Source of the DNA: Eledone cirrhosa
Taxonomy: Eukaryota
Assembly: GCA_964016885.1 (NCBI GenBank)
Contig: OZ024740.1
Coordinates: forward strand, 54,808,001 to 54,872,000
Direction of reading: 5' to 3'
DNA: 64,000 nucleotides
Part shown: positions 430 to 61,705 of the stretch, piece after piece
Layout of the letters: each line of letters starts with the position of its first letter
Position numbering within the stretch: position 1 is the stretch's first letter
Translations under genes and position numbers: made by a program
Notes under the pieces: generated by a model
Seen by the model: the letters and a program-made list of their open reading frames with translations, nothing else
The model's database searches: none
Told to the model about the DNA's origin: nothing

Positions 430-778
430 ATAAAAGACGTAAAATAAGAAAATTGTTTTTAAAACATTTTTTTTTAAAATTAACTTACTTACTTAAATTT
501 TCACTCCAACTAATTAGTTTCTGCAATGGGATAAAGACAGTTAATAACTGTCTTTATCCCATTGCAGAAACTAATTAGTTGGAGTGAAAATTTAAGTAAG
601 TAAGTTAATTTTTTTTTTTTTATTTTTTTTTTTTTTATTTTCTTATTTTACGTCTTTTATATTATTGTTCTGCATTCTCCTGCATCGAACCACCTAGGTA
701 CTATGACATAACCTGTGTATTTGCTGGCATTGGCGTATATCTGTGCGCTTATGTTAGTAGATATATTAAATTATCTAT
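430..778 (+). mobile_element. Fold-back (palindromic) insert in (TA)n carrying the 3' half of a hammerhead
   Basis: Arms 430-544 and 544-660 are inverted; right arm continues as a unique tail to ~778. Axis hairpin TGCAATGGG...CCCATTGCA (522-566) is followed by GAAA-CTAATTAG-TT (567-580). Confidence 0.7.
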
Positions 779-1593
779 ATATATATATATATATATATAT
801 ATATATATATATATATATATATATATATATATATATATATATATATATATATATATACATATATACATATATATATACATATATATATACATATATATAT
901 ATACATATATATATACATATATACATATATACATATATATATACATATATATATATATATGTGTGTGTGTGTGTGTGTGTGTGTGTGTGTGTGTGTATAT
1001 ACAGTGGTAAAGGTGTTGCCTTTACGATCATAACGTTGTGTTCCATTCAACGGCTGAGTTGTGTGTTGTCTTCTTGAGGAAAACACTTCATTTCAGATAG
1101 TGTATTCAGCTGAAAATGAGTACCACCAATAGCTGGGAGTTAAAACTGCGTTGGACTAGCGTCCTAACCTCTCTTGTACTCTCAAACGCTTCACGCAATA
1201 ATATATATAATTTTAAAATTCTATATCATACAGTTTGTGTACTTAAATTTTTATGTATATATCTATTTATGTATATATGTATGATTTCCTGAATTGATAG
1301 GGAGAAATATATCCATACATCCATATAGGTAAATAATCCTGTATACGTGGATTTCTCCCTTAATATTCCTGCGCATACATGGGACTATTTATGCGATAAG
1401 ATATATATTCACTCACATTAAGTGATATATATAATTCGTTTCAATGGCTATCATCGAAATATATATAGCAGTAAATAAAGGATTATGAGTTCATGCAATT
1501 GACTTATGTTTCGTCACTATATATATATATATATATATATATATATATATATATATATATATATATATATATATATATATATATATATATATA

Positions 1594-2680
1594 TCATAAA
1601 ACATGTCTATAGAATCACCAGATAAAATATATACCATTTCCTCTCCCAATTAGCATAATTAACTATATAAAAAATCGAATAGGCCATGCTATGAGAATTA
1701 GGCTTCTATGAAGAGATCTCCAACAACTAACCAAATCTAGCCCTTCGCGTCGGCTACGGCGGAATATTTATCGAATATTTCGACAGCGTAATCGCCCAGA
1801 TACAGTCAATTAAACAGAATTAGGTGTAAAATAAACTAGGAGAAAAGAGAATACATTTATTTACCTCTACCATGGTTTCGTCCGCATTTTGAGATTTCCA
1901 ATATCTTCGGAAATTCGAGCATCGGACTCTTCAGAAGTTTGCTCTAATCTAGACAATAAATTTTCCAAAGTGATCGCGCCAAGAATACATTCAAAAATGG
2001 CTAAGAACCGTGACGTAGCAGCAGTCAGGTTGGAAGGAGTGTGATAGTTACTTATGGCTGGTGGCTTTTTGCTAGAAAGCACAGCACAATACAGCCAAAT
2101 TTGTATCTCAACCTAATGGCAGATTATTACATATAAAGGTAATAATCTCCCATTAGGTTGAGATACAAATTTGGCTGTATTGTGCTGTGCTTTCTAGCAA
2201 AAAGCCACCAGTCATAAGTAACTACCACACTCCTTCCAACCTGACCGCTGCTACGTTACGATTCTTAGCCATTTTTGAATGTATTCTTGGCGCGATCACT
2301 TTGGAAAATTTATTGTCTAGATTAGAGCAAACTCCTGAACAGTCCGATGCTCGAATTTCTGAAGATATTGGAAATCTCAAAATGCGGACGAAACCATGGT
2401 AGAGGTAAATAAATGTATTCTCTTTTCTCCTAGTTTATTTTACACCTAATTCTGTTTAATTGACTGTATCTGGGCGATTACGCTGTCGAAATATTCGATA
2501 AATATTCCGTCGTAGCCGACGCGAAGGGCTAGTTTCGGTTATTTGTTGGAGATTTCTTCATAAAAGCCTTATTCTTATAGCCTGGTCTATTCGATTTTTT
2601 ATATAGTTAATTATGCTAATTGGGAGAGGAAATTGTATATATTTTATCTGGTGATTCTATAGACATGTTTTATGATATAT
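1594..2680. repeat. ~540 bp-arm inverted repeat with short spacer, between (TA)n tracts
   Basis: 1594-2130 is the reverse complement of ~2139-2680 with scattered substitutions; the mirrored 71-aa ORFs 1867-2082(-) and 2187-2402(+) reflect this. Confidence 0.9.
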
Positions 2681-4184
2681 AGCTCTGATTATTTAATCTA
2701 TTAACTTTTCATTGAGCCACAAAGTGACCCGTTGCAAAACACGTATATGTATATATGTATATATATATATATATATATATATATATATATATATATATAT
2801 ATATATATATATATATATATATATATATATATATATATACATATATATATACATATATATATATATATATATATATATATATATATATATATATATATAT
2901 ATATATATATATATATATATATATATATATATTGTGTGTGTGTATACATACATACATACATACACGCCGACACACACACACATATATATATATGATGTAG
3001 AATGCTGTGTATATAAGTTCATACGGCAAATATTAATGCCGAGTCGTAACGTCTGGTTAGTCATAACACACACACACACACTCACACACACACACACACT
3101 CACACACACACACACATACACACAAACGCACACACAGACACGCGCACACAGATACACACACACACACCCATATATATATATATATATATATATAATATAT
3201 ATATATATATATATATATATATATATATATATATATACGTCCATGTGTAATTGTATATCTTGTATGCATGTCAGTGTCTGGGTGGCAATCATTGTCGCGT
3301 CTGTGGATCTGTTGGTATTGAAAGTTTCGTAACATTTACTCCATCGCTACCCCTTGCCGACTCTACTTACACTTCATAGTTTCGCCGTTTACGGTTGCAC
3401 TACCATTTCGCCCTATCCGAAGCTAATTAGTTTCTCTAACCACCATAGCACGCAAAGAAATATATTGGCAACAATCATATTCACTACCATCTTTCTACAA
3501 AACCCCTCTCGGCTGCTACTATGTGTGTATGTATGTCATCATCATCATCATCATCATCATCATCATCATCATCATCATCACTGTTTTACGTTCGTTTTTC
3601 CACGCTAACATGGTTTAGACGAGTTGTCCTGTTGTGGGCAGTGTCCAATCGGCTGACCTTGTGTTGCTCATACGGGAACAGATTCTGGCTTGATTTCTAC
3701 AGCTGGATGCCCTTCCTAACACCGACCTCATTTACAGTGAGTGCTGGGTGCTTTTTTTTCGTGGCCCCTACACGTCCACTTTACAGTGTAGGCTGGGTGC
3801 TTTTTTGTATGTATATGTAGAAATTCATAAACATCCTTGTACATTCCCTTACATTGTTTAGTTCACGCACGCATGGTCACTCACACATTCACACTCTCAC
3901 AGCAGGTAGCCTATCACGATCCATTGCCCATCTTTCAGACATAAGAACACAATTACATGCGCGCGCACACATGCACTCACGCACGCATACACATATGTCC
4001 ACATCACATATACAATCATTACCTCCCTTTTAAACCTCTCTAACGCGTAAGATACCCCTTGATCAACAAATCTCCAAAATAGCTGACTGAATACACACTT
4101 ATATTCTTCTTTTTTTCTCATTTTCCCTGTTCCTTTCTTCGTTTCACTCTTTATCTTTCTATTTTATCTTCTATTTTAAATATA

Positions 4185-60807: not shown

Positions 60808-60915
60808 AGTCCGCCGAGGTTAACTTTGCCTTTCATCCTTACGGGGTCGATAAAATAAAGTACCAGTAATACACTGGGTTTTGCTGGCCTTGTGCCAAAA
60901 GTAGAAACAATTATT
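60808..60915 (+). mobile_element. 5'-truncated tRNA-derived SINE
   Basis: Family core and tail; ATTATTAGAGTC present on both sides (possible TSD). Confidence 0.8.
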
Positions 60916-61344
60916 AGAGTCATTGGTGTACGTAAATTATGTTGATAAAACTATATGGAACACCTAGTTATAATTTCATTTGTCTCCCCTTAGTTAATTA
61001 TAATGGTATAGACAATTATCGTTTTCTCTCATTCAGCTTTCAAATGAAAACCAACAGAAGTACATGTTCGTGTATGCGCATGTGTAATTGCATGCGTATG
61101 TGTGTATATATATATATATATATATATATATATATATATATATATATATATATATATATATATATATATATGTATGTATATATATATGTTTGTCTACTGT
61201 ATATATATATATATATATATATATATGTATAAATGTATGTATATATATATGTTTGTCTACTGTATATATATATATATATATATATATGTGTGTGTGTGTG
61301 TGTGTGTGTGTGTGTGTATATATGTATATATATATATATATACA

Positions 61345-61705
61345 TAATTTGTATTCGATGATTAAAGCGTCCGTATGCGGTAGGCCGTGTGAGCACTCGA
61401 TGCCCTCGTAGAGCAGAGTATGATATCACAGAAAAAAGAGAATCAGTGTTGCGACGAAAAGAATTTATTGGACATATTACAATTGTTTCTTGGGCGACCA
61501 GCTCGAGCCACGGTCGATATGGTGATCCAACCTGACTCTGGAAAATCTGCTTCATAGAATCGAGACGTATCCGAGGACCGCGCGATTTCAGAGTCTGGTT
61601 TGATCACCATATCGATCGTGCCTCGAGCTGGTCGCCTGAGAAACAATTGTAATATGTCCAATAAATTCTTTTCGTCGCAACACTGATTCTCTTTTTTCTG
61701 TGATA
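61345..61705 (-). mobile_element. Fold-back insert with long GC-rich hairpin carrying hammerhead 3' halves
   Basis: 61422-61540 is inverted at ~61585-61705; GAAA CAATTG TA at 61640-61651 and its complement at 61478-61489; unique left tail to ~61345; TA-flanked. Confidence 0.75.

Follow-up and report, generated by a model that had tools for sequence, protein, structure and literature searches.

Palindromic inserts in (TA)n tracts

We analysed a 64,000-nucleotide stretch of the genome of Eledone cirrhosa (assembly GCA_964016885.1, 3.0 Gb; contig OZ024740.1, positions 54,808,001 to 54,872,000, forward strand), hereafter referred to as the window. It has the composition of TA-rich animal DNA (32% GC) and carries palindromic inserts, assigned below to families A, B, D, E, F and I, that lie in (TA)n tracts. 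A previous inspection of the letters alone (the sequence-only reading) had described these inserts as a succession of (TA)n, short arm, axis, long arm with a unique tail and (TA)n, and we saw the same build in inserts of families A, B, D and E. The GAAA, stem III and UH motifs of the hammerhead ribozyme, which it had read outward from the axis, are indeed present at 567, 61640 and 33220 (minus strand). In the following, positions within a family are counted from the G of GAAA (position 0), minus values lying 5′ and plus values 3′, and an arm is called tailed or tail-less according to whether it carries the tail. The inserts and related pieces are as follows.

433-775: family A insert; tail-less arm 433-542 (minus strand, +91 to -22), axis at 543, tailed arm 544-775 (plus strand, -22 to +209); the parent is a 555-bp tandem hammerhead unit
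1595-2757: family I insert; 543-bp arms, tail of about 75 bp on the right, axis near 2130, about 255 nt 5′ of GAAA; full hammerhead in both arms (cores at 1934, minus strand, and 2336, plus strand)
~16344-16504: family F insert; tailed arm (minus strand) to -21, tail-less arm (plus strand) from -25; axis at 16447, 5′ of the core at 16453 and coinciding with the putative start site discussed below
23884-24075: family B insert; inner ends at -14 (tailed arm) and -18 (tail-less arm, the longer one at the axis), with an extra G before -18
~33153-33398: family E insert; axis at GAAA, with inner ends at -2 (tail-less arm) and +1 (tailed arm)
39978-40111: family B insert, axis located in helix III; inner ends at +3 (tailed arm) and +16 (tail-less arm)
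41512-41704: family B insert; inner ends at -18 (tailed arm) and -14 (tail-less arm)
48331-48535: family B insert; each arm extends to about -21, with an A/T run between them at the axis
49481-50061: cluster of family B pieces, including a lone tail fragment
49645-49741: family B insert with two tail-less arms, within that cluster
49829-50061: family B insert with a templated duplication at the axis, within the same cluster
53806-53907: family B insert with non-overlapping arms; tail piece (+119 to +76) fused to a tail-less arm that begins at -16
54617-54794: family B insert; arms to about -11/-12
54866-54961: single family F arm (plus strand), keeping a TATA-like box and a full hammerhead (core at 54902)
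57675-57867: family B insert; inner ends at -15 (tailed arm) and -16 (tail-less arm)
61343-61702: family D insert; tailed arm ending at about -43 (helix II), tail-less arm to about -100 with a whole hammerhead, one core letter changed (core at 61571, GAAA at 61640)

The cores of these inserts are not chance occurrences, since exact matches in the whole genome number 54,367 for B, 17,337 for F, 4,396 for A, 2,958 for D and 166 for E, whereas reversed-core controls gave 0 for B, A, D and E and 0-7 over all five families. The sequence-only reading had also held that the CUGANGA half of the ribozyme is absent from such inserts and replaced by a mirror image. This is wrong for the family D insert, with its whole ribozyme in the tail-less arm, and the inserts at ~16344-16504 and 1595-2757 keep the full ribozyme as well.

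Parental elements

The palindromic inserts are ends of hammerhead-bearing Penelope-like elements (PLEs). Longer copies with stem I and a core 5′ of helix II, which the sequence-only reading had anticipated, exist for A, D and E and, in another form, for B. Family A parents have stem I, CUGAUGA and a long helix II in tandem units of ~555 bp, family D and E parents have stem I with CUGAUGA or CUGAGGA, and family B parents have stem I with a U3-A8 core (N7 being G, T or A in 18 aligned copies); family F parental copies also carry type I hammerhead parts. The U3-A8 core has been described for PLEs of Cercyon (PMC4209133). Because of this form, a search for CUGANGA upstream of B missed the B parents; its 25 matches are junction filler or chimeras, and these loci were excluded from every B count.

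Free folding of four B parents gave the full three-way hammerhead fold in one. An Rfam scan of the window had no hammerhead among the best 150 of 638 matches, only hairpin-type chance matches, and a hammerhead descriptor found 4 full motifs in the window versus 0-3 in each of 20 shuffles. The full motifs in the window are thus not above chance, and the ribozyme call therefore rests on the conserved parental copies; these carry a type I hammerhead, for which self-cleavage is predicted.

One locus (L081) is a full B element comprising pseudo-long terminal repeat (pLTR), tail, 5′ untranslated region (UTR), a 718-aa open reading frame (ORF), 3′ UTR and pLTR, with a repeat of 3,118 bp. The ORF has reverse transcriptase (RT) and GIY-YIG parts, with YRDD and NVIY..AYIG. 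GIY-YIG, RVT_1 or HTH_animal is found on 18-100% of the members of its Atlas neighbours (0.96-0.99), and Pfam and PDB sequence searches with the B ORF gave no recognised match. The motifs RWR, DKT, CNCPDRSIC, CNLC and CKH are present, CCHH is absent, and a single Cys lies between the two GIY-YIG halves. ORFs just downstream of F ends are 49-51%, and those downstream of E ends 44%, identical to the L081 ORF; for family D, only a distant ORF fragment was found nearby, at one of the four loci fetched. The link between parental copies and an RT/GIY-YIG ORF bears out the earlier assignment of the inserts to PLE ends with type I hammerheads. Since the ORFs follow directly, the tail of the inserts is the stretch between pLTR and ORF, near the 5′ end of the transcript. 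The Drosophila Penelope transcript starts within the upstream pLTR (PMC2377424).

The usual PLE layout, with a partial tandem of pLTRs, an inverted 5′-truncated copy and a tail at one end, was found at L081 and L097. By its motifs, (TA)n targets and hammerhead, family B has the trait set of the Hydra clade and is assigned to it on that basis; the (TA)n flanks and hammerhead agree, and the 3,118-bp repeat unit is slightly over the usual <3 kb. We also considered a miniature inverted-repeat transposable element (MITE) or Tc1-mariner derivative, which was rejected: the two arms of an insert differ in length, the position of the axis is not constant, and each arm maps to a pLTR belonging to an RT element.

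Family A consists of ~555-bp tandem units with one type I hammerhead each, in which no ORF was seen. Its arrays (L116-L145, L216-L235), of 1-4 units, have two fixed ends (+91 and +209) and head-to-head joining. Arms of this family are sometimes longer than one unit, which is what copying of a tandem or circular template would produce.

The two arms of an insert

To describe the inserts quantitatively we used family B. Decomposition of 125 B clusters against three parents yielded 89 head-to-head junctions; junctions more than ~130 nt from the anchor (long inserts) lie outside the 89, and L041, a repeat of L040, was left out. A tailed and a tail-less arm are joined in 73 of the junctions and two tail-less arms in 3, no junction joins two tailed arms, and 13 are unclassified. 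The outer ends are fixed at +117/119 for the tailed and at +42 for the tail-less arm, both at a TA of the element that matches the target. The 3′ end of each arm points outward into (TA)n, and the antisense strands of the two arms attach by their 5′ ends to different strands of the flank, as with two target-primed products.

The arms within one B insert differ at 27 of 722 diagnostic sites, versus 25% between inserts, and they share a haplotype in 46 of 51 cases, versus 689 of 3605 cross pairs. This common haplotype shows that the paired arms came from one template. The tail-less arm extends further 5′ by at least 3 nt in 28 of the 73 pairs and the tailed arm in 20; with a difference of at least 10 nt, the numbers are 21 and 7, respectively. 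In 8 of the 73 inserts the tailed piece ends before +42, leaving no overlap between the arms, while those of the other 65 overlap by ~60 nt. A single folded cDNA is excluded for these 28 and 8 inserts, because its short arm would hold nothing that is absent from the long arm. The insert at 53806-53907, the arms of which do not overlap, is accordingly not palindromic, and fold-back is impossible there. Compared with L1-type twin priming, the polarity and the common haplotype fit, and non-overlapping pieces are confined to the 8 inserts.

At the B junctions, the arms meet with 0-4 nt of overlap or with short filler, some of it copied from nearby. Short overlaps and filler are the pattern of end joining by microhomology.

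Stop sites, promoter-like signals and an extra G

Among the 146 inner ends of the 73 B pairs, 107 lie at -10 to -21, which is the 3′ strand of helix II, 36 lie further 3′ and 3 further 5′. Genome-wide, 29,695 B arms extend to -18, but the count of those agreeing with the tested parental letters as far as -26 is 3,867 or more. Inner ends of family F lie at -17 to -26, at or 5′ of the core; among 100 F arms extending to -24 (the first matches), ~60 end within 2 nt and 37-39 continue (hand count). Ends of family D pile up near -95 to -106, upstream of stem I, the values -105/-106 being limited by the length of the reference; the multi-family decomposition was used for arm ends only, since it misplaced TA runs and some tail pieces of D.

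The B and F stops lie ~30 nt past a TATA-like box. Judged by general promoter consensus motifs, 6 of 8 B parents contain a CCAAT box near -105. At -47/-49 lies a TATA-like box, which reads TATTTAAA in 5 of the 8 parents and is weaker in the other 3, and there are initiator-like motifs whose A falls at -22 and at -18. In F copies that read through the stop site, a TATA box lies 29-32 nt before it in 14 of 16, and CCAAT lies at -84 in 9 of 16. From these motifs we infer that the B and F piles would be 5′ ends of RNA, that is, the transcription start within the pLTR.

The base preceding the arm points in the same direction. Among the first 100 matches (hand counts), B arms starting at -18 are preceded by G in 46, C in 47 and A in 7, and those starting at -17 by G in 16, C in 46 and T in 38. 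This is an excess of G at -18 over -17 (Fisher p = 7e-6; G against C, p = 0.004), and the parental base preceding -18 in B is T or C. We fetched 40 loci for 41 of the 46 rows with G; 22 of these 41 arms are tailed and 19 tail-less (one of the latter being a tail with a deletion), and therefore both types of arm reach the same end. An extra G at the 5′ junctions of L1 insertions reflects the copied cap (PMC11702581).

Separately, we observed chimeras (L004, L015, L001, L046 and L025) in which a B arm continues into family C, family F or another hammerhead family, often with 4-5 nt of common sequence at the switch. The B arms of L004, L015, L046 and L025 end near -13 to -19. These four chimeras show that template jumps happen near the presumptive B start, but the search that yielded three of them was biased, and in two the landing point is 3′ of the site where the partner would be cut.

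Proposed mechanism

The inserts are probably pairs of target-primed cDNAs that were made on one capped RNA, ran off its 5′ end and were joined head to head. In this scheme, the element protein would cut a (TA)n target on both strands, and the two ends so made would each prime a cDNA on the same RNA, one beginning at the end of the tail (+117/119) and the other at an inner site (+42). To our knowledge, PLE reverse transcription involves no RNase H. Both cDNAs could then copy the shared 60 nt, and both would run off the capped 5′ end of the RNA at the pLTR transcription start. Their free 3′ ends would be joined through 0-4 nt of microhomology, sometimes with templated or untemplated filler, and after joining each cDNA would template the second strand of the other. 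To produce long copies, a cDNA would have to jump from the 5′ end of the RNA to the repeat near its 3′ end, which is the step with the least support. A PLE protein from Anolis cuts and extends both strands in vitro, from two start sites that bound the tail; it is a predicted dimer and uses uncut RNA (PMC11167929).

With its start site inside the ribozyme, the B transcript would begin with the 3′ half of the hammerhead and lack the rest at its 5′ end. The template RNA would be uncut because this half alone could not cut itself. The sequence-only reading was right that the copied RNA had not been cut at the ribozyme site. The position of the B axis in stem II would be a by-product of the overlap between promoter and ribozyme.

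Alternative explanations

Several observations, collected in this and the next two paragraphs, weigh against two run-off cDNAs as the source of the inserts. The start site is read from motifs and junctions; a look-up of the B pLTR stretch listed no RNA holder, a result that counts neither way. Most B loci were chosen by a pattern that spans -6 to +15, and unselected sequence supplied just 14 of the 73 pairs. Families A and E show no pile at all, their ends being scattered over hundreds of bases, and upstream of the D edge, which is sharp near -100 to -105, no TATA box was found. The number of B arms extending to -26 (3,867) is a lower bound because the pattern misses some parental variants. 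About half of the 41 G arms (21 by our own count) have a G that the partner arm could also supply, so part of the excess could stem from microhomology instead of the cap; such a G could fit a cap-derived C used as one-base microhomology, but it weakens the count. Deletions at the centres of old palindromes could make either arm seem a few bases longer.

B has a high stop rate throughout the 3′ strand of helix II; past -21 the rate drops to near zero, coinciding with the tip of the helix. This would be expected if two cDNAs were made and the enzyme stalled in the ribozyme structure or at a bound protein rather than at the end of the RNA, and in line with stalling every family has its own stop zone near the ribozyme, and D has no TATA box. 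Against this, F stops 5′ of the whole ribozyme, 30 nt past a TATA box and with CCAAT at -84, the G excess is confined to one position, and stems I and III of B have no such pile. Polymerase stalls usually occur at the foot of a stem. We regard stalling as unlikely, although it survives better than the other alternatives.

The recurrent B junctions, -18 with -14 or -15 and -18 with -12, raise a further question about how joining starts. The -12/-18 junction, seen in 26 of 100 rows at -18 versus 2 of 100 at -17, fits a snap-back over a 6-nt loop better than the annealing of two ends, and it may need cDNAs extending to -21/-22. A cDNA at the RNA 5′ end could snap back over a loop of 3-6 nt and the new strand transfer to the second cDNA; self-priming would then be set by the end of the RNA and not by stem II, for instance by pairing of a cap-derived C with a G four bases back. 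The commonest junctions (-18 with -14, -15 or -12) have offsets that suit a small hairpin, and -18 with -17, too tight for one, occurs in 1 of 100, so local snap-back over 3-6 nt may start the joining. However, the longer arm is the tail-less one in 13 of the 20 -12/-18 junctions fetched, and a second cDNA is therefore still needed; moreover, 8 of the 73 inserts have no overlap to fold on. We consider this route improbable; it departs from the joining of two run-off cDNAs only in how the joining begins.

The sequence-only reading had proposed that a single tail-primed cDNA copies stem II, snaps back on that native hairpin and primes its own second strand. B arms end in helix II and share one haplotype, one tailed and one tail-less arm per insert is what such a cDNA would give, and the family A copy in the window has its axis at the tip of helix II. 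Nevertheless, the 5′ strand of helix II (-54 to -27), which the cDNA must include to complete the stem, is reached in only 1 of the 89 B junctions. The axis hairpin is not the native stem II either: the window copy of A lacks the native loop, and the mirror arm of B is a perfect copy of the 3′ strand instead of the native 5′ strand. The longer tail-less arms (28 of 73) and non-overlapping pieces (8 of 73) contradict a single self-primed cDNA. As for the breakpoints that had been placed in stem II, those of B do pile up there, but F and D stop elsewhere, the axes of F, D and I lie 5′ of the core, and the ends of A and E are scattered. Snap-back on stem II is thus largely refuted for B, D and F, and as a general account we judge it very improbable.

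Least probable of all are self-priming on antisense RNA, as proposed for rotifer PLEs (PMC3846280), which yields head-to-head palindromes yet predicts neither a sense-side G 30 nt past a sense TATA box nor fixed outer ends at +42 and +119, and an assembly artefact, which TA-rich palindromes, being hard to assemble, might invite and which is disfavoured because arms that differ within an insert (112 of 2890 sites) and tens of thousands of copies with the same outer ends are unlike read chimeras.

Other repeats in the window

Family C is a further hammerhead-bearing end with a minimal helix III, found at 92-363, 24678-24968, 27361-27634 and 34237-34722. Most of its copies have the full ribozyme, and 34237-34722 is a head-to-head pair. 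Direct repeats with 96% identity lie at 25251-26352/27883-28960 (1.1 kb) and 29436-29666/29961-30192 (231 bp); the 1.1-kb repeat comes after family C copies and may be the upstream body of that family. An additional hammerhead family is represented at 8765-8892 and 9875-10002, in opposite orientations, with a full motif at 9935 on the plus strand.

A 242-bp inverted pair with 98% identity and a hammerhead-like core (9549-9790/10222-10463; relative at 30512-30604) is apparently arranged tail to tail round a 430-bp spacer, the reverse of the usual orientation. Other inverted pairs with 94-98% identity, 0.4-1.6 kb apart (54151-54371/55371-55591, 30817-30957/32596-32736 and 43468-43524/43923-43979), enclose other inserts; they may have arisen by inversion or inverted duplication where inserts had entered (TA)n. 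A dispersed short repeat that looks like a short interspersed element (SINE) occurs at 12230-12377, 18647-19296, 21756-21942, 22051-22486, 36396-36642, 40697-40888, 56487-56604 and 60811-60916; some copies are in tandem, and the family is unrelated to the palindromes.

Implications

If the inserts are paired run-off cDNAs, the long-puzzling inverted structure of PLEs would be explained without a ribozyme hairpin as primer, and it would be suggested why the ribozyme spares the template in family B. The inserts would then constitute a very large natural record of the reaction, with two fixed cDNA starts, one common stop and a cap-like G, and this record would tie the two-strand, two-start activity seen in vitro (PMC11167929) to genomic structures. 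The mechanism predicts RNA 5′ ends at -18/-22 for B and at -25 for F, with products on both strands. The short palindromes are, in addition, a large hairpin-forming fraction of the genome that could be mislabelled as MITEs or SINEs.

More tentatively, and with the balance of probability against it, the dimer, the jump and the head-to-head joining can be read together as obligatory twin priming near the 5′ end of the element's own capped RNA, by which PLEs in general would move. A protein dimer would then make two strong-stop-like cDNAs from the two cut target strands, and each of these may switch to the RNA 3′ end that the ribozyme defines, rebuilding the pLTR and copying the ORF. Once joined head to head, each cDNA would prime the second strand of the other. 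A single pathway would thus yield the tails, the inverted pLTRs, the partial tandems and the short palindromes in their tens of thousands, and a promoter start in or at the edge of the hammerhead would control whether the 5′ copy can cut.

Comparison with known systems

Twin priming of L1 was reportedly described by Ostertag and Kazazian in 2001. It shares with the mechanism proposed here the priming of both target ends on one RNA, the inverted, microhomology-joined product and the cap G (PMC11702581). In L1, however, twin priming is occasional and the pieces are adjacent, whereas here it appears to be the rule, with fixed starts and an overlap of ~60 nt in 65 of 73 inserts. The minus-strand strong-stop DNA of LTR elements begins near the 5′ end of the RNA and runs off it, and the end repeats allow a jump. 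There, a tRNA primes one cDNA; here, nicked target DNA would prime two, and failed jumps would be integrated.

The closest relatives by structure are the Hydra-clade PLEs (PMC8557442), which share a single ORF, RWR (RWK), DKT, a CxCX5C linker and the lack of CCHH, a nuclease with CxxC and CxH, a hammerhead in the pLTR, (TA)n targets, and the partial tandem, inverted 5′-truncated copy and one-ended tail. Their tails measure 30-40 nt, versus 77-120 nt here, and what sets the present elements apart is the short two-arm inserts in tens of thousands, with inner ends piled at one site. Inverted 5′-truncated copies and one-sided tails are known features of PLEs (PMC8557442), opposite-strand ribozyme pairs have been noted before (PMC4209133), and for palindromic PLE junctions an origin by self-priming of an antisense RNA product has been put forward (PMC3846280). 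The idea that self-priming gives rise to these palindromes thus predates the sequence-only reading. In the literature covered, with few subscription papers and main texts alone, no paper assigns inner ends to the start of a promoter or interprets the two arms as a pair of cDNAs. The supplements of PMC11167929 (Fig. S1-S2) and PMC8557442 may bear on this novelty.

The Poseidon PAc protein in vitro (PMC11167929) likewise shows two RT starts that bound the tail, cuts and extends both strands and uses mainly uncut RNA; the available part of that work describes no head-to-head products, pairing of tailed with tail-less arms or promoter run-off. Non-LTR retrozymes (PMC7229834; bioRxiv 10.64898/2026.07.22.740005) resemble family A in having tandem, non-coding hammerhead units, of 555 bp in family A, but the family A arrays also occur as tailed and tail-less arms joined head to head. 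Taken together, the elements are new members of a known PLE clade, and the mechanism proposed for their inserts is a variant of twin priming with strong-stop-like features.

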